Assembly: GCA_046861655.1 (NCBI GenBank)
Contig: JBHIAI010000053.1
Span: 1 to 11,252 of the forward strand
DNA length: 11,252 nucleotides
From: Fidelibacterota bacterium
GTDB taxonomy: Bacteria; Fidelibacterota; Marinisomatia; Marinisomatales; S15-B10
Direction: 5' to 3'
Shown piece after piece: positions 3,362-11,186 of the stretch. Made by a program: the position numbers and the translations under genes. Below the pieces are notes generated by a model, which worked only from the letters and a program-made list of their open reading frames with translations, was not told the DNA's origin and ran no database searches. The stretch's first letter is position 1; each line of letters opens with the position of its first letter.

Positions 3362-3679
3362 ATGCTTTTCCACGCAACAATGATGCATACTGAGGACAAC
3401 TGTCCTGGGTACGAGCGTGAGAGGATGCCCGAGGTACTCAGTGCCTTCGAGAATCTCGAATCGCTTGCCAAAGATCTGAGCGTAAAGCTCCATTCCTTTG
3501 TTTGGTGTCCCCCTGACCATGTAGCCTACGTTCTCATCGAGGCTGACGCCCTCAATGTTGTATCCCGTTTTCTTTTTTCAATTCCCATTCGTCAGGAGAT
3601 GAGAATAGTTCCTGTGGAGCCAATACAAGACACTATTGCCATGGGAAAGGCGATGATGGCTGAAGCACAAGGGCGCTAA
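3362..3679 (+). CDS. Small hypothetical protein with H-x4-CP and C-x3-H motifs, probably dimeric alpha+beta barrel (GYD/DUF3303-like)
   Basis: 105 aa, SD AAGGAG 8 nt upstream. Pattern MLFHATMMHTEDNCP...VKLHSFVWCPPDHVAYVLIEAD...EMRIVPV recalls ferredoxin-like barrel proteins. The family assignment is from memory. Confidence 0.75.
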   Translation: MLFHATMMHTEDNCPGYERERMPEVLSAFENLESLAKDLSVKLHSFVWCPPDHVAYVLIEADALNVVSRFLFSIPIRQEMRIVPVEPIQDTIAMGKAMMAEAQGR

Positions 3680-3718: not shown

Positions 3719-4174
3719 ATGGCAAATGTCGACGTTGTCAGAGAGATACTTCGTCTGGTAGAATCAGGCAAATACGAGGACGCGGGAAACCTGCTGTCCG
3801 ACGGTTTTACCTTTAGCGGTGCCGTTCCGGAGCCTGTGAGTGGGAAGGAATGGCTCGGCTTGCACCGGAAACTGAAGGAAGCCTTTCCGGACTTTTCCTT
3901 TAATGTGAGTGAAATCGAGGAAACAGAGGGGCGGGTGCGTGCCACCATTCAGATCACAGGGACGCATAAGAACGATCTTGACCTATCCGCTATGGGTATC
4001 CCCACGGTGGGGGCCACTGGAAGGTCTGTCAAACTGCCGGTGGAACACCCTGAGTTTGGTGTGGAAGGGGGGAAGGCGACGTCCCTGCACGTCGCGGATG
4101 CGGGACCGGAAGGAGGGGTAGCCGGAATCTTGAAGCAGCTTGGTGTCCAGGAGCCACCTCCGGCCCAGGAGTAA
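3719..4174 (+). CDS. SnoaL-like / ester cyclase (NTF2-fold) protein
   Basis: 151 aa, SD AGGAG 8 nt upstream. Typical motifs AFPDFSFNV, ITGTHKNDL, IPTVGATGRSVKL, GILKQLGV. Confidence 0.88.
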   Translation: MANVDVVREILRLVESGKYEDAGNLLSDGFTFSGAVPEPVSGKEWLGLHRKLKEAFPDFSFNVSEIEETEGRVRATIQITGTHKNDLDLSAMGIPTVGATGRSVKLPVEHPEFGVEGGKATSLHVADAGPEGGVAGILKQLGVQEPPPAQE

Positions 4175-4393: not shown

Positions 4394-5914
4394 CTAGCGA
4401 AGCTTCTGTTTTGTCTTCATCACGACCTGGGCGTAGGACACATCGAGAGCCTTGGCGATCCTGGTCTTGTTGTTCTGGTATTTGGTCACAAGGTACGAAA
4501 AAAGGTCCTCCTCAAACTTCTTATTCGCCTCCTTCCACTTGAGCGGAATCAAATACCTCAGGTAGTGCTCAAAATGGGGATTGTCGATCACAACGGGCTT
4601 TCTGGCCTCGCCCCTCTTCAATCCCAGTTTCTTCTGGTAAAGAAAATAGGTCCGGGTGTCGATGTCCAGTTGCCTGCACATTTGAGGGGCATTCTTCGTT
4701 CTCTCCAGGTGAAGGTTGAGCAGACTGGTATGAAAGATCCTCCGGATTTCCCTCAGGGTCTTATCCATGGCAAAGCCAAACACTTCCTCCTGAACGTCCA
4801 CCCGGGGGATCTTCTGGTTCCTCCCCAGGAATTCCACGTAAAAGGCCAGCAGTTTTTCCCTGTACCCCACCAACGGCAGCCCAATCTGTACTTCCTTCAT
4901 CAGTTCGGCGTACCCGGCTGAATAGAAGTGGTCCGCGAGACCCACGTCTCCGAGTTTTTCGTGGCACAGTCCCAGCTTGAAATAATCCTCAAAGGCCATG
5001 TCCCGCATTTCATACCGGGTGGTGAGCTGCAGGGACTGGATGTGATAATCGACAGCCTTCCGGTATCTCTTGGACTCAAACTCCAGGTATCCAAGGTTCT
5101 GCAGGGCAAGACTCATATTGTACACAGGGAGATCATCCAGGATGAGTTCCTTGAACAGGGATCTCGCTCTGTCAAGCTCGCCTTTCTTAACCCATACCCA
5201 TCCCAGGTCATTGGTGGCAGAGATCTGATGTTTGGTCAGACCGTACTCACTGGCGATATCCAGTGCCTCATTCAGGTATTCTTCCGCCTTGTCCAGGTCA
5301 TTCATATGGATTAAGATGGAAGCCCTATGCCTCAATATCATTCCCACACGGAAATACTCCCCTGTGGACCTGTAGTGGTTCTCGCACTCTGTTAATAGCT
5401 TCAGGGCGGACTCAGGAGATGTACCTTTCTGGGAAAGTCCGACATAGGTCTGAATGCGCCATCTAAGTTTCTCGTTTTTTGTCAGGTTTGCGGCTGCGTG
5501 AAGAAGGGACAGCGACTCTCTCACATATCCCAACTTGCGGAAGAGATCGGAGACTTCGGCATACGCATAGGCCCTGGCATCGGCGGATAGATTCTTTTCA
5601 AGAGCCAGGCTGAAGGCCGTGAATGCCTTCTGATAGTTTCCGTTGAAGGTATGGTGGTATCCCAAACAGGCCCAGGCGATGCCTCTCTGGTCGGGCGAAT
5701 CCAGTTCAAAGATCCCCGACAGGTCATCGATGGCACCCTCCGGCGTCACAAGATTGAGTCGATAGACGTCCTCCGTTTTTTCCAGGTAGTCGTCGATCGA
5801 AACCTTGGAGATCAATTCCTTTTGGGATGGACCGTCCCCCAGTACCGGGAATAGACTGAGGACCTCAAGAGGCACCAGGTTGCCAGGTGCTTCGTTATCC
5901 TTTGATTTATTCAT
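4394..5914 (-). CDS. TPR-repeat transcriptional regulator with two C-terminal Fis-like HTH domains
   Basis: 506 aa, SD AGGAGG 5 nt upstream. TPR-like helical repeats over aa ~78-340 (AWACLGYHHTFNGNYQKAFTAFSLAL; ATNDLGWVWVKKGELDRARSLF; ALQNLGYLEFESKRYRKAVDYHIQSL; DYFKLGLCHEKLGD). Fis-like segments at aa ~386-432 and ~459-503. Confidence 0.85.
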   Translation of the reverse strand: MNKSKDNEAPGNLVPLEVLSLFPVLGDGPSQKELISKVSIDDYLEKTEDVYRLNLVTPEGAIDDLSGIFELDSPDQRGIAWACLGYHHTFNGNYQKAFTAFSLALEKNLSADARAYAYAEVSDLFRKLGYVRESLSLLHAAANLTKNEKLRWRIQTYVGLSQKGTSPESALKLLTECENHYRSTGEYFRVGMILRHRASILIHMNDLDKAEEYLNEALDIASEYGLTKHQISATNDLGWVWVKKGELDRARSLFKELILDDLPVYNMSLALQNLGYLEFESKRYRKAVDYHIQSLQLTTRYEMRDMAFEDYFKLGLCHEKLGDVGLADHFYSAGYAELMKEVQIGLPLVGYREKLLAFYVEFLGRNQKIPRVDVQEEVFGFAMDKTLREIRRIFHTSLLNLHLERTKNAPQMCRQLDIDTRTYFLYQKKLGLKRGEARKPVVIDNPHFEHYLRYLIPLKWKEANKKFEEDLFSYLVTKYQNNKTRIAKALDVSYAQVVMKTKQKLR

Positions 5915-6276
5915 TGTCTCCTCCTGAAATCAGGCGAAAATATACGAATCGATGGACTTTTCATAGAAAAAAAATGCAGAAGAATCATCTAAATAACAAG
6001 AACAAAACGTGAACTCCTTCTGATGTTTGATTGATTGTGAAAGACAAGCAGGTCCTCCCAGGCTGAACCGCTCCCGATTTGCGCACACATTTCCCGTCCC
6101 TGCCCCAGCGTTCTCTTAGCTGTGGCAGAGCCTCTCCAGATAGCGGCTGGCCGTGGATTCAGCTAGGCGATTCTGGCCAGAACCCGGGCATGGTCATCAC
6201 ACACGCGGCCAGCGTGGCGATGAAACTACCTTTTTTCGTCAGTACCCGACATCGATGTCTCTTCCAGGCGACGGGA

Positions 6277-6489
6277 TTAACTATTCTGGTCCGTCCCAGA
6301 CGAATTCTGGTCTGTGCCAGAGGAGTTCTGGTCCGTGCCAGACGAATTCTGGTCTGTGCCCGAGGAATTCTGGTCCGTGCCAGAGCCAATTTCTTCCATT
6401 GGATCGCTCGAGAGCGGGTTAACGAAATCGCTGCATCCGACTATTCCGATGAAGAATAGTCCCAGTGCAAGGATGAGTCTAGCTTTCAT
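6277..6489 (-). CDS. 70-aa lipoprotein / repeat-peptide precursor with 5 x SGTDQNS
   Basis: SD AGGAGG 5 nt upstream of ATG 6489 (the ORF-track start 6552 coincides with the predicted -35). MKARLILALGLFFIGIVG-C is an SPII-type signal with lipobox IVG|C19, followed by SDFVNPLSSDPMEEIG and (SGTDQNS)5-stop. Repeat differences are all synonymous in this frame. Confidence 0.9.
   Translation of the reverse strand: MKARLILALGLFFIGIVGCSDFVNPLSSDPMEEIGSGTDQNSSGTDQNSSGTDQNSSGTDQNSSGTDQNS
6280..6384 (-). repeat. Coding tandem repeat, 5 x 21 bp
   Basis: Minus-strand units: tct ggc acg gac cag aat tcc / tcg ggc aca gac cag aat tcg / tct ggc acg gac cag aac tcc / tct ggc aca gac cag aat tcg / tct ggg acg gac cag aat agt. 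Confidence 0.98.
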
Positions 6490-6523
6490 GATGCCCTCCT
6501 TTTCGTTTTCTGTTGGACACCGA

Positions 6524-6552
6524 ATTATACCAAAAGAGGCGAACAAGGACAA
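6524..6552 (-). promoter_or_regulatory. Sigma70-type promoter of the repeat-lipoprotein gene
   Basis: Minus strand TTGTCC (6552-6547), 17 nt spacer, TATAAT (6529-6524), with extended -10 TGn. The -10 ends 34 nt upstream of the ATG. Confidence 0.75.
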
Positions 6553-6741: not shown

Positions 6742-8337
6742 GTGAGTCAGACAGAATCAAAGAGGGACAACCTGAGGAAATCCCTGTGGGAGTTCATCCT
6801 CGACCGATCCCCGGAAGCGATATACGTTCTCGCTCCCGATGGAGGGATCGTGGATGCTAATCAGGGTTGTTCGGACATGCTCGGATATTCCCGGAAGGAG
6901 CTCTTGGCCATGACGGTGTTTGACATCCACGCTGGTTTTTCCTGGAAAGACTGGACGAGGCGGTGGAAAACGCTGAAGGAGCGGGGGACGGGTGTGGTGG
7001 AAACGGAGCACAGGACGAAGGAGGGTGATTTGGTTTCCGTTGAGGTCATGGGCAATTATTTCACCTCCAACGGGAAGGAGTTCAACTGCGCGTTCGCCCG
7101 GGAGATCACGGGACGGAAAAAGGCGGAGACAAAGATCCGGTCGCATGCGGAGAGATTGGCGGCTCTCCACGAGGCGAGCGAAGCCCTGGTGACGTCCCTG
7201 GAGTTTTCTCCCGTTGCGGACAAGTGCGCGAGAATCGCCAAGGATCTCCTGAAAGCGGATGGAGCGGTGATTTTCCTGAAAAAACCCCGGGGAAAGTATC
7301 TCGAACCCATCGTTTCCAGGGGGTCCTATGGGAGTGAAGTCCTCTCCATGAGGCTGAGACTGGGGGAAGGTGTGTCGGGGAGGGTGGCCGTCTCCGGAAA
7401 AAGTGAGATCATCAATAGAGTAGACCTTACGGATAACGGTAAGCAGGTTCCCGGCACTCCGGTTGAACCTGAATCGCTGCTTTCGGCGCCTCTCAAGGTC
7501 AAGACAAAGGTCACAGGCGTGATCACTCTGGACCGCCTGGGCGAACGGAAATTCTCTGAAGACGACCTGTCGTTCCTGGAAGACCTTGCCAACATCTGTG
7601 CGGCGGCCATCGAGAACGCCAGGGCTTATGACCAGGCCCGGAAAGAGATCGAGGACCGCAAACAGGCCCAGGAGAACCTGAAACGATCGGAAGAGGAGCT
7701 TCACAGGCTGACTGCTCACCTCCAGAAAGCCAGGGAACAGGAGCGGATCGAAATCGCACGAAAGCTTCAGGATAACCTGGGCCAAGCCATAGCCGATGTG
7801 AAAAGGCATCTGGAGTCGTTGAAAAAGGAATTTCCCCGGCGGGGGAAACTGGTTCAGAAGATAAACGCCTCGTTGAAAACGATGGATGACTCCAGCCAGA
7901 CATTGCTCGGGATTTCAAGGGAATTGAGACCTGTGGAGCTGGAGGAGGTGGGCCTTACGGAAGCCATCAAATCGCAGACGGAACAGTTTCAGGATCGATC
8001 GGGCGTTCTCTGCAAACTTACCACAGATTCCCGGCTGGATTCCCTGGATGCGGACCGGTGCAGCGACATTTTCTGGGTGGTGCAGGAAGCCCTGTCAAAT
8101 GTGGCCCGCCACGCGAATGCCACCAGCGTTGAGGTAGACCTGAAGAGGGAGAAAGGTGACTTGCGGCTCTCGGTGAAGGACGACGGCAAAGGGATCAGTG
8201 AGGAGGAATTGTGGGACCCAACGGCATCGGGAATCCTGGCCATGAGGCAGAGGATGTATCCGTGGGGAGGGAGATTCAGGATTCATGGCCGGAAAGGGAA
8301 GGGGACCAGGGTAGAGGTCATTCTGCCGCTTGAGTAA
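6742..8337 (+). CDS. PAS-GAF-HisKA_3-HATPase kinase-like protein lacking the phospho-accepting His
   Basis: 531 aa, GTG start with GAGGGG upstream. PAS aa ~15-125, GAF ~140-295, H-box reads ERIEIARKLQDNLGQ, N-box QEALSNVARHA, G1 DDGKG, G2 region SGILAMRQR. Confidence 0.92.
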   Translation: MSQTESKRDNLRKSLWEFILDRSPEAIYVLAPDGGIVDANQGCSDMLGYSRKELLAMTVFDIHAGFSWKDWTRRWKTLKERGTGVVETEHRTKEGDLVSVEVMGNYFTSNGKEFNCAFAREITGRKKAETKIRSHAERLAALHEASEALVTSLEFSPVADKCARIAKDLLKADGAVIFLKKPRGKYLEPIVSRGSYGSEVLSMRLRLGEGVSGRVAVSGKSEIINRVDLTDNGKQVPGTPVEPESLLSAPLKVKTKVTGVITLDRLGERKFSEDDLSFLEDLANICAAAIENARAYDQARKEIEDRKQAQENLKRSEEELHRLTAHLQKAREQERIEIARKLQDNLGQAIADVKRHLESLKKEFPRRGKLVQKINASLKTMDDSSQTLLGISRELRPVELEEVGLTEAIKSQTEQFQDRSGVLCKLTTDSRLDSLDADRCSDIFWVVQEALSNVARHANATSVEVDLKREKGDLRLSVKDDGKGISEEELWDPTASGILAMRQRMYPWGGRFRIHGRKGKGTRVEVILPLE

Positions 8338-8531: not shown

Positions 8532-11186
8532 TTGTCAAGATTGGGCAAGAAATTCTTGAAAGATAAACAGAAATCCAGGGATCAGCTTGCCCGGGAATTG
8601 GAGGAATCACGCCGGCGGGTTGCTGAGCTGGAAACCCGTGCGTCCGGGCAGGAAAAAGCGGAGCAGAGCCTGCTCAAGAGCGAGGAAAGATTCCGGGCCA
8701 CCCTGGACAGTATGATGGAAGGGTGCCAGATCATCGGACGTGACTGGCGTTACCTGTATGTCAACGACGCTGTGGCGACCCACGGCCGTAAGAAGAAGGA
8801 AGAACTCCTGGGCCGTACCATGATGGAAGCGTATCCGGGTATCGAAGAGACGGAGATGTTCGGCTATCTCCGGCGGTGTATGGAGAAGCGGATTCCCTAC
8901 AGGATGGAAAACGAATTTGTCTTTGCCGACGGAAGCAAGGGGTGGTTCGATCTAAGCGTTCAGCCTGTGCCCGAGGGCATATTGGTGCTTTCTTTGGACA
9001 TCACCGAACACAAAAAGTTGGAGGAGGCCATCCGTAAAAGAAGCGAGGATCTCGCCCTGGTCAATACCGTGAACGAGGCGATCAATCAGGGCCGGACTTT
9101 CCCGGAGGTGCTTACGCTGTTAGCGAAGGGAGTACGGAAGATCTTCTCCGGTTTGGGAGCGAGCGTGTACCTGTTCGATCCCGGTGGGCAACACCTTGAG
9201 TTGAAACAACTGTCAATGCCGCAGAAGGAACTCAGGAAGATCGAAACCTTGATCGGGCGGAAAACCCAGGGGTTGAAGATTCCTGTTGTCAAGGGAAGCC
9301 CCTTCAAGAAGGTGCTCGACTCCGGAGAACCCCAGGTTGTCAACGATCCGGAAACCGTTCGAAAACGGATGGAGGAATTCGTGATCGATGTGGCGGAGCC
9401 GGGGGCCAAGACTCGCAAGGCAATCCAGGAAGTAATCCCACAGATTTGCAGAAACCTGAATATCCACTCAGCGGTTCGTCTGCCTCTTATTTCAGGGGCA
9501 GAGGCCATGGGCATCATGGACATATCGCGATCCGAGCCTTTTGGCGAATCAGACCTGCGCAGACTCAAGTTCATTTCAGAAGGATTGACATTGGCCATCA
9601 GGCGGAAACAGCTGACTGATGAACTGGCGGAATCGCAGAAACAGTACCGGGACCTTGTGGAGAACGCCCTCATCGGCATCTATAAGACCAGCCTGGCGGG
9701 CGACATCCTGTACGTGAACGACGCCGTCGTCGAGATGCTGGAGTTCGAGTCTGCCGAGCAACTGATGTCACAGGGGGCCGTCGTCCGGTATAAGAATCCT
9801 GAGGACAGGGAAGTCTTGATCCAGAATCTCAAACAGCACGGCTCCGTGGTCGGTCATGAAGTGGAGTTGCTTACCCGGACGGGCAAAACAAAACATGTCC
9901 TGCTCAGCGGGACTCTGGTCGGGGAATTCCTGTCGGGAATGATCATGGACATTACGGAACGAAAAAAGGCGGAAAAGGAACTGGCTTCCCGCATCTCACG
10001 GATGGAGGCCCTGCATGAAGCCACGCGGAGTCTGGCCGCTTCCCAGGATTTGCAGGAGGTACTGGACCTGTGCGCCTCGCTGGCTGTCGATTTGATCGGA
10101 GCTACCGGGGCCGTGATCTTCCTGAAGGAAAAGAGAGGGAGGAAAAAAATTCTGACGCCCGTGACCGCCCGGGGTCCTTACGGACAGGATATCATGTCTA
10201 TGACCCTGGAGCTTGGCGAAGGCATTTCTGGACGAGTGGCCGCCGCGGGGAAGAGCCAGTTGGTCAACAGGGTGGACCTGACGGACCGGGGAAGGCTTGT
10301 CCCGGGTACCCCCCTGGAACCCGAGTCCCTGATGTCGGCTCCCCTGAAATTCGAGAAGAAGGTCACGGGGGTTATTACCGTGAGCCGGCTGGGAGATCGC
10401 ACATTTTCAGAGAACGACCTTTCGTTTCTGGAGACTCTCGCCTACATTTCGGCTGCCGCCATCGAGAACAGCCGGCTTTTCGCTCTGACTCAGAAGGAAA
10501 TCGACGAAAGGAAGAACACGGAAGCGGAACTCCGGAGGCTTTCCCGGCATATTTTTCAGGCCAGGGAACAGGAAAGGGTTGAAGTGGCCCGGGAACTGCA
10601 CGACGATCTGGGACAAGTCCTGACGGCCATCAAGATGGACCTGGTTTCCACCGCGAAAAACCTCCCTGAACAGAAAAGTGCTCTAACCCAGCGGATCGAA
10701 AGGTCGCTGAAGACCATCGAAGCCGGCCTCTCCAGCGTTCGAAGGATATCGAAAGAGTTGAGACCGCCGCTGCTCGACGAGGCCGGACTCGCCGCGGCCA
10801 TTGAGTGGCAGGTTGAAGACTTTCAGAATCGGTTTGGGGTTGAGAGTGAACTTCTCATACACACGGATATTGATCATCTTGACCGCGATCGATCCATCAC
10901 TGTTTTTCGCATCGTTCAGGAGGCCCTGAATAACGTAGGTCGACACGCGAATGCATCAAGAATAGAAATTGTCGTCTGGAAGGAAAACAGTCACCTGCGA
11001 CTTGAGATCAAGGATAACGGCAAGGGGATCGCCCAGGAGGAAATCGGCAAGATCGATTCCTTCGGCATCGTTGGCATGAAGGAAAGGGTTCATCCCTTCG
11101 GAGGCGACCTGGAGGTTACGGGACAGGAGGGGATTGGGACGGTGGTCGCCGCCCGTATTCCCCTTGCGAGAAAGAGAAGAAAATGA
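8532..11186 (+). CDS. Soluble PAS-GAF-PAS-GAF HisKA_3 (NarX/UhpB-class) sensor histidine kinase
   Basis: 884 aa. Two PAS domains ending DITEHKK and DITERKK, two GAF domains, H-box VARELHDDLGQ, N-box QEALNNVGRHA, DNGKG, FGIVGMKER. Start uncertain (TTG at 8532, 8541 or 8556). Confidence 0.94.
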   Translation: MSRLGKKFLKDKQKSRDQLARELEESRRRVAELETRASGQEKAEQSLLKSEERFRATLDSMMEGCQIIGRDWRYLYVNDAVATHGRKKKEELLGRTMMEAYPGIEETEMFGYLRRCMEKRIPYRMENEFVFADGSKGWFDLSVQPVPEGILVLSLDITEHKKLEEAIRKRSEDLALVNTVNEAINQGRTFPEVLTLLAKGVRKIFSGLGASVYLFDPGGQHLELKQLSMPQKELRKIETLIGRKTQGLKIPVVKGSPFKKVLDSGEPQVVNDPETVRKRMEEFVIDVAEPGAKTRKAIQEVIPQICRNLNIHSAVRLPLISGAEAMGIMDISRSEPFGESDLRRLKFISEGLTLAIRRKQLTDELAESQKQYRDLVENALIGIYKTSLAGDILYVNDAVVEMLEFESAEQLMSQGAVVRYKNPEDREVLIQNLKQHGSVVGHEVELLTRTGKTKHVLLSGTLVGEFLSGMIMDITERKKAEKELASRISRMEALHEATRSLAASQDLQEVLDLCASLAVDLIGATGAVIFLKEKRGRKKILTPVTARGPYGQDIMSMTLELGEGISGRVAAAGKSQLVNRVDLTDRGRLVPGTPLEPESLMSAPLKFEKKVTGVITVSRLGDRTFSENDLSFLETLAYISAAAIENSRLFALTQKEIDERKNTEAELRRLSRHIFQAREQERVEVARELHDDLGQVLTAIKMDLVSTAKNLPEQKSALTQRIERSLKTIEAGLSSVRRISKELRPPLLDEAGLAAAIEWQVEDFQNRFGVESELLIHTDIDHLDRDRSITVFRIVQEALNNVGRHANASRIEIVVWKENSHLRLEIKDNGKGIAQEEIGKIDSFGIVGMKERVHPFGGDLEVTGQEGIGTVVAARIPLARKRRK

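Follow-up and report, generated by a model that had tools for sequence, protein, structure and literature searches.

We analysed a stretch of DNA of 11,252 nt (the window), which is one whole contig (JBHIAI010000053.1) of the 2.06-Mb, 92.8%-complete genome of a Fidelibacterota bacterium (GCA_046861655.1). On its minus strand lie a gene for a 70-aa exported protein ending in five tandem heptapeptides (the precursor) and a co-oriented gene for a 506-aa cytoplasmic protein (the regulator), which joins tetratricopeptide repeats (TPRs) to two C-terminal helix-turn-helix (HTH) units. The original prediction, made from the letters of this DNA, had proposed that the two form a peptide-signalling cassette, in which the heptapeptide SGTDQNS, or a rotation of it, is released and sensed by the TPR protein. 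The features of the pair are as follows.

6524..6552, minus strand: sigma70-type promoter of the precursor, TTGTCC-17 nt-TG-TATAAT (10/12 match to the consensus)
6495..6500, minus strand: ribosome-binding site AGGAGG of the precursor (from the sequence)
6277..6489, minus strand: precursor gene, 70 aa, with lipoprotein-type signal, linker and five cores (open reading frame; relatives adjoin homologous regulators)
6433..6489, minus strand: signal region ending in the predicted lipobox IVG-Cys19 (pattern prediction; all 16 short and all 12 long precursors aligned have Cys19)
6280..6384, minus strand: five tandem SGTDQNS cores, residues 36-70, the last abutting the stop codon (sequence, Tandem Repeats Finder)
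5915..6276, no strand: 362-nt spacer between precursor and regulator (Rfam, folding against shuffles)
4394..5914, minus strand: cytoplasmic TPR regulator gene, 506 aa, with ribosome-binding site AGGAGG at 5920-5925 (open reading frame, Pfam, model)
4805..5797, minus strand: TPR superhelix, residues ~40-370 (AlphaFold2 model, alignment, fold matches)
4619..4786, minus strand: first Fis/NtrC-type HTH unit, residues ~377-432 (middling match to the NtrC4 DNA-binding domain: Z 5.1, rmsd 2.4, 60 aligned)
4406..4561, minus strand: second Fis/NtrC-type HTH unit, residues ~452-503 (HTH_8 profile; internal duplicate of the first unit)

We placed the start of the precursor at the ATG at 6489 (stop codon 6277-6279), because AGGAGG lies just upstream and M1 is invariant across 16 aligned precursors. 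A 91-aa version with a TTG start at 6552, given by the program that listed the open reading frames (ORFs), was rejected, this TTG being that of the -35 hexamer. The signal region is hydrophobic (Kyte-Doolittle 19-mer, 2.33) and, together with Cys19, indicates cleavage by signal peptidase II, a pattern-based prediction; both this enzyme and LpxC are encoded in the genome. A linker of 16 aa (residues 20-35) leads to the cores, in whose DNA Tandem Repeats Finder detected a period of 21 (4.9 copies, 85% match). All six variant codons among the five copies are synonymous (6/6).

The regulator has no membrane segment (hydropathy maximum 1.02), matches TPR_12 in Pfam (E 6.5e-17) and was modelled as an all-helical protein (pLDDT 88.6, pTM 0.85). 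Conserved residues of the superhelix are R126, R189, R195, N235, D236, W239, Q272, N273, E309 and D310. Among its closer homologues, N273 and R126 are each kept in 54/54 sequences, R189 in 52/54 and N235 in 48/54. The best fold match of residues 40-371 was LGN (Z 20.9, rmsd 6.2, 285 aligned). The matches also included the Rap105-peptide complex 8rte (Z 19.3, rmsd 5.5, 304 aligned), the NprR-NprX complex 4gpk (Z 19.1, rmsd 7.4, 276 aligned) and RapJ, with the Rap and NprR matches spanning Z 17-19. PlcR, PrgX, Rgg and AimR were absent among the fold matches listed, and no invariant Gln corresponding to the Rap-type catalytic residue was present within the N-terminal 120 alignment columns.

The two halves of the C-terminal domain align with each other (probability 92%, E 5e-7), and its last 135 residues, modelled separately, gave a pLDDT of 90.3. 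We observed that TyrR and NtrC4 domains ranked highest in a search of PDB sequences and that the top four of 48,161 chains in a fold search were NtrC4, NtrX and Fis (middling Z, 4.5-5.1), while Foldseek with this domain returned zero matches at E ≤ 0.001. HTH_8 is weak in this protein (E 0.008, short of the curated Pfam cut-off) and is matched in 25 of 59 family members at E ≤ 0.05, the best at E 1.1e-12. Both units thus match the Fis/NtrC group (NtrC4, NtrX, TyrR, Fis), but here two copies stand in one chain, fused to TPRs and with neither an AAA+ nor a receiver domain; they would probably work as a one-chain pseudo-dimer.

The layout of the precursor, the 362-nt gap to a co-oriented cytoplasmic TPR protein and the positions of N235 and N273 are therefore as originally predicted, and the C-terminal HTHs hold through matches that are weak in this protein but concordant. 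The predicted near-consensus promoter is present; taken alone, however, it is not above chance (2 sites found against 1.8 in shuffles). A similar site, CTTG-N19-21-TAnnnT at most 110 nt from the start, precedes 21/31 precursors, against a mean of 0.7 and a maximum of 4 in 500 rounds of shuffling, this pattern having been picked post hoc from an alignment of precursors that are non-independent relatives. The 362-nt spacer does not fold better than its shuffles (z -0.10), and no Rfam match was found anywhere in the window. The motif AAATCAAGnATATTT, which stood out on inspection of the upstream DNA of three close precursors, was dropped, as it is not general.

The precursor-regulator pair is a conserved family of Fidelibacterota

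We compared the regulator with its homologues (collectively, receptors). The search returned 83 matches, the query included, 75 of them at E < 1e-93 with 37-65% identity. Those with names belong for the most part to Fidelibacterota/Neomarinimicrobiota (Marinimicrobia), a phylum of the FCB group, and the regulator was matched at E ≤ 1e-40 in 81 of 401 genomes from this phylum. Marinimicrobia are a diderm phylum known nearly exclusively through genomes. The 60 distinct receptor ORFs with scores of 300 bits or more are termed the close clade, and those below 300 bits distant; a locus was assessable when its flanks reached at least 3.5 kb upstream and at least 0.7 kb downstream of the receptor.

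A precursor was found near 34 of the 60 distinct close-clade receptors (33 by a strict rule, with L013 added by a looser one), and at assessable loci within 4.3 kb of 22/24. A further 24 close-clade receptors lack one, but their flanks are short. In this genome there are three cassettes, namely the present one with its five SGTDQNS cores and two paralogues (62% and 45%). The paralogues, too, each have a precursor upstream, in the first case a 49-aa lipoprotein whose terminus is (SGTNENE)x2 and in the second a 166-aa lipoprotein with the terminus SGFNEN. By way of background, the genome has 1969 signal-like ORFs, of which 9 show the loose tail pattern; three of these nine are the cassettes. Precursor and receptor occur in four layouts. 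In three of them the precursor lies upstream, being coupled to the receptor, 340-650 nt away, or 3.2-4.2 kb away with a divergent gene in between; in the fourth it is downstream and convergent. The long precursors described below are translationally coupled to the receptor.

The reciprocal comparison gave a consistent picture. A profile of 12 long precursors matched in 50/401 genomes (61 rows, 59 genes); a receptor adjoins 44 of 49 distinct loci, and the remaining 5 lie at contig ends. For the other 10 long-precursor genes, followed by coordinates only, 8 are near a receptor, and 2 lie where their contigs begin. With a profile of 16 short precursors we obtained 15 genes, after a duplicate row and a marginal match to a long lipoprotein had been removed; 13 are on the same contig as a receptor and 2 near contig ends. 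As these 13 are the training set of the profile, the weight of this count rests on the absence of stand-alone copies, and with both profiles no stand-alone precursor was found across the 401 genomes. Hence the two checks proposed with the original prediction, for a conserved neighbouring peptide gene and for a repeat lipoprotein occurring independently of the regulator, both failed to count against the pair, and the originally proposed signalling role is supported in part.

At one locus (L116:3148-4507), the receptor is split over two frames beside an intact precursor, by assembly error or decay. In another group (family f24: L097:3968-8253, L099, L120, L121, L125-L152), one long precursor with the terminus G-G-[D/E]-G-G-[E/D]-x-G stands between two divergent receptors.

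The precursors come in three forms: short lipoproteins with 1-10 cores, 52-54-aa proteins without a lipobox and 166-195-aa lipoproteins with one terminal core. The lipid anchor, which had been singled out as unusual, is indicated by the lipobox pattern in 24/31 precursors; it is missing, however, in 6 precursors of the 52-54-aa subgroup. The C-terminal 6-7 residues are the sole part common to all three scaffolds. Over 34 terminal cores, two of them from precursors legible in part only, the consensus is S-G-x-[NSG]-E-N-[GDE], with S1 in 33/34, G2 in 34/34, E5 in 23/34 and N6 in 28/34; the search pattern itself demanded positions 1-2 (S/G1, G2). Close relatives follow the tail pattern S-G-x-x-[E/Q/S]-N-x, and about 28 distinct cores exist in the family. 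Because single-copy relatives fix the register by a Ser-Gly start and an end at the stop codon, SGTDQNS itself is the candidate peptide, and the rotations allowed for in the original prediction fall away.

Selection on the repeats was evident from their codons. Across the repeat copies of 12 precursors, 45 synonymous variant codons stood against 4 non-synonymous ones, where 23% of sites are synonymous; variants were tallied once per column, and the 12 precursors are related. This ratio indicates that the internal copies are under protein-level selection. The data thus establish the pairing of the genes and its conservation, the domain composition and the selection on each repeat copy.

The long precursors share a body of ~130 aa with an invariant Gly and Asn (L002:1913-2410, G000 C125). 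It has no match in Pfam, NCBIfam or PDB sequences; 54 homologues were found, none with a Pfam domain. A FecR-like self-cleaving fold was considered for it and gained no support: neither Pfam nor PDB sequences gave a relevant match, and Atlas matches were below 0.9 at TM ~0.3. The long form is present in the close and in the distant clade alike (midpoint-rooted FastTree, 81 sequences), which suggests that it is ancestral, and the multi-copy mini-lipoprotein looks derived from the 166-195-aa lipoprotein with a single terminal core. Two long precursors have the body domain tandemly doubled before a single terminal tail (L153:1462-2634, L154:1498-2637), and at another locus an extra lipoprotein gene with the Gly/acid tail GGETNN lies upstream of the long precursor (L021:2538-3233).

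Neighbouring genes and comparison with known systems

Beyond the pair, a frequent neighbour is a stand-alone receiver, whose gene comes first downstream of the receptor, in the same orientation, in 16/32 close-clade loci scanned; its acceptor Asp and a Lys are invariant across 17 aligned receivers. This gene, the long precursor form and the precursor-less distant clade were all out of view of the original prediction. An S9-family alpha/beta hydrolase is co-oriented after the second paralogue (L001:4743-5522, G000 C58); it is a candidate for processing and is absent at other loci. In one subgroup, an exported 930-970-aa PD40/TolB-like propeller protein on the opposite strand separates precursor and receptor, and a role of it in import or processing is possible. 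Its loci are as follows.

L006:814-3630; L007:671-3592; L011:932-3727; L024:963-3749

For 10 representatives of the distant receptors, six clusters have names (3 Marinimicrobia, 2 FCB group, 1 Bacteroidota), and among proteins of the Atlas that look alike in combining TPR and HTH_8, Acidobacteriota predominate. Most distant receptors lacking a precursor stand directly upstream of large secreted proteins (Pfam dockerin in 1/6 scanned), and tails at distant loci are more variable, e.g. EEDSEE and EVWEIDG. In the precursor-less distant clade (L085-L096, L100, L102, L118, L122, L124), the receptor often overlaps the secreted-protein gene, and the tails of these secreted proteins are dockerin-like or of the type IX secretion system (T9SS) kind. 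Its groove has His at N235 and mostly Thr at R189, with N199 and K195 besides (17 sequences); the distant-clade alignment, at ~25% identity, is uncertain.

In the window itself, two-component genes abound; they encode one receiver-PAS protein, one PAS histidine kinase and two kinases of the PAS/GAF HisKA_3 kind. Two small genes of the window converge on the regulator; these are possible targets and were not among the neighbours of relatives scanned.

2-661, 747-1952, 6742-8337, 8532-11186: two-component genes
3362-3679, plus strand: 105-aa, weakly DUF3303-like protein
3719-4174, plus strand: SnoaL-like protein

We next compared the pair with published peptide systems. RRNPP propeptides have 10-100 aa, their receptors ~250-500 aa with TPRs, and the two genes are adjacent (PMC10075063). 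The present precursor fits this range, the long relatives being outside it; the regulator, at 506 aa, is marginally over 500, and with 362 nt between them the genes are adjacent in the RRNPP sense. However, RRNPP receptors have the effector domain N-terminal and the TPRs C-terminal, whereas the order here is the reverse (TPR 40-370, HTHs 377-503), and the RRNPP survey discards clusters with N-terminal TPRs (PMC10075063). RRNPP hosts are Bacillota or their mobile elements, in contrast to a member of the Fidelibacterota with lipopolysaccharide (LpxC), and RRNPP propeptides are exported by Sec and cut by signal peptidase I, whereas the lipobox predicts signal peptidase II. Because domain order and host differ, we do not file the pair as an RRNPP member.

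Rap-Phr systems, including the multi-copy phage Phr105 and Phr3T, likewise pair the receptor with a small propeptide that is encoded next to it, is exported and ends in a pheromone of 5-10 residues (PMC11343458). Since Phr propeptides are reported with up to 8 identical pheromone copies (PMC11343458), the five identical cores are less unusual than they had been taken to be. The Rap receptor is likewise a cytoplasmic TPR protein with a conserved Asn, RapF N227, which is strictly conserved and grips the peptide backbone (PMC3601957), and its fold matches here through the Rap105-peptide complex. Candidate counterparts of RapF N227 are the conserved N273 and N235. Unlike Phr, the precursors are mostly lipoproteins, some with the folded body of ~130 aa, and their core S-G-x-x-E-N-x is acidic/polar; the sequence homology of the regulator to Rap is limited to generic TPR, the RapJ match (E 2.5e-5) ranking amid generic TPRs.

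NprR-NprX differs from the present regulator in domain order and HTH type, the HTH of NprR being N-terminal. There is also a likeness, in that NprR is a TPR-type transcription factor which a peptide switches and which acts on the stand-alone receiver Spo0F (PMC4970707); the receivers that follow the regulator at half of the close-clade loci scanned may parallel this, through a possible contact. For the import step alone there is a fungal analogy, Cryptococcus Qsp1-Opt1, in which a secreted peptide is imported by an oligopeptide transporter (OPT)-family protein and acts intracellularly (PMC7537855); an OPT-family transporter gene is present in this genome.

Proposed mechanism and its alternatives

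Taken together, these observations point to a one-component regulator that senses a peptide in the manner of RRNPP quorum sensing, within an outer-membrane bacterium, a reading to which we assign a probability of about 0.55; all steps past the gene pairing are ones that we infer. The precursor would be exported by Sec and lipidated at Cys19. A protease would then release up to five SGTDQNS from one precursor, by cutting either ahead of every Ser-Gly or stepwise from the C-terminus, seven residues at a time. The peptide would cross the inner membrane, possibly via the OPT-family transporter. It may lie extended in the basic TPR groove, where Asn273 and Asn235 would contact its backbone and conserved Arg residues its acidic side chain and terminal carboxylate. 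Once bound, the peptide would switch the DNA binding of both Fis-type HTHs; in many relatives it may also affect contact with the stand-alone receiver encoded directly downstream. Paralogues that differ in their cores would form channels of their own.

Several results weigh against this reading. Import is the first: RRNPP peptides re-enter through the oligopeptide permease Opp, whereas neither an Opp-type binding protein (SBP_bac_5) nor a PTR2 transporter was found in this 92.8%-complete genome, and Opp-type proteins are present in just 12/27 cassette genomes. OPT as a dedicated importer was rejected, since it occurs in 26/27 genomes with the cassette and in 16/18 without. No protease is a regular neighbour (one S9-family hydrolase in 53 neighbours scanned), no stand-alone receiver is present in this window, and no operator motif was found, an expectation-maximisation search upstream of 31 precursors having returned the AT-rich promoter spacer. 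The fold and sequence likeness to Rap and NprR is not above that to eukaryotic LGN or designed TPRs.

Other such points concern the pairing and its specificity. Two assessable close-clade receptors, L023 and L110, have no precursor, though their genomes carry a full cassette elsewhere, and L028 and L029 are probably true orphan receptors. Among distant receptors, 10/27 assessable have a nearby precursor (a count that includes pairs sharing one precursor and one split-gene fragment) and 17/27 have none; the TPR-tandem-Fis fold can therefore operate without an adjacent peptide gene. R126 and R189 are unconserved also in the distant group that has precursors. Core similarity declines with receptor divergence, so that cores track receptor relatedness, which shared descent suffices to explain. 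For the proposed co-variation of core and TPR pocket, no pocket-to-core code was resolved; for example, the change of N235 to Ile with SEHG cores, viewed in the alignment, is confounded by kinship.

In a second possibility, the same pair is cell-autonomous and the tail reports the export or envelope state, either through binding of unexported precursor to the TPR protein in the cytoplasm (a secretion checkpoint) or through cleavage and re-import of the peptide from the cell's own periplasm, so that neighbours are never reached. A diderm host, the mostly lipid-anchored precursors, the lack of a linked dedicated importer and the translational coupling of long precursors all agree with it. We nevertheless hold it to be doubtful, as the selection on internal copies and the varying copy number suit the release of several free peptides, the cores vary across paralogues and taxa in a pherotype-like manner, and one subgroup has lost the lipid anchor.

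The small gene could also be the target of the regulator and not the source of its ligand, that is, a surface or periplasmic lipoprotein with a Gly/acid-rich tail for sorting, glycosylation or adhesion, while the TPRs sense e.g. the downstream receiver. Against this, two subgroups have lost the body and kept both the 7-mer and the linkage, which also persists in the convergent and the 3-4 kb separated layouts, and the tail keeps an exact 7-residue register fixed at the stop. The conserved body of the long form, the distant receptors that adjoin other secreted proteins with no peptide gene and the more variable distant tails are what such a role would predict, and we consider it unlikely. A multi-core precursor of a ribosomally synthesised and post-translationally modified peptide (RiPP), with enzymes encoded elsewhere and the TPR protein as chaperone or pathway regulator, is hardly credible: it would account for a leader with tandem identical cores and for a weak NCBIfam match to the RiPP TPR protein HaaT (E 1e-5; 23.5 bits, with the cut-off at 1125), but that match is generic TPR, an export signal stands where an enzyme-binding leader is expected, and no tailoring-enzyme family recurs in the 53 neighbours scanned (47 of them from 131 listed).

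Returning to peptide sensing between cells, a wider version of it can be put forward tentatively, at somewhat less than even odds. Gram-negative peptide quorum sensing would have been assembled independently here, when the C-terminal heptapeptide of a lipid-anchored envelope protein became a pheromone, the folded body disappeared and the core came to be repeated up to ten times, tuning the yield; paralogous receptors would read the pherotypes and feed both transcription and the receiver.

Tandem identical pheromone cores are known already from Rap-Phr, and the family itself was not found in print: a full-text search, in a library lacking most subscription papers, yielded no account of a system like this from Marinimicrobia or other diderms. 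Cytoplasmic peptide-pheromone receptors are described as a trait of Bacillota (PMC10075063, PMC11343458). If true, a Marinimicrobia counterpart would carry peptide signalling across the outer-membrane divide, with a new receptor architecture and a visible path from an envelope lipoprotein to a multi-copy pheromone. The number of distinct cores and the three paralogues in one genome make cognate versus non-cognate binding directly testable.

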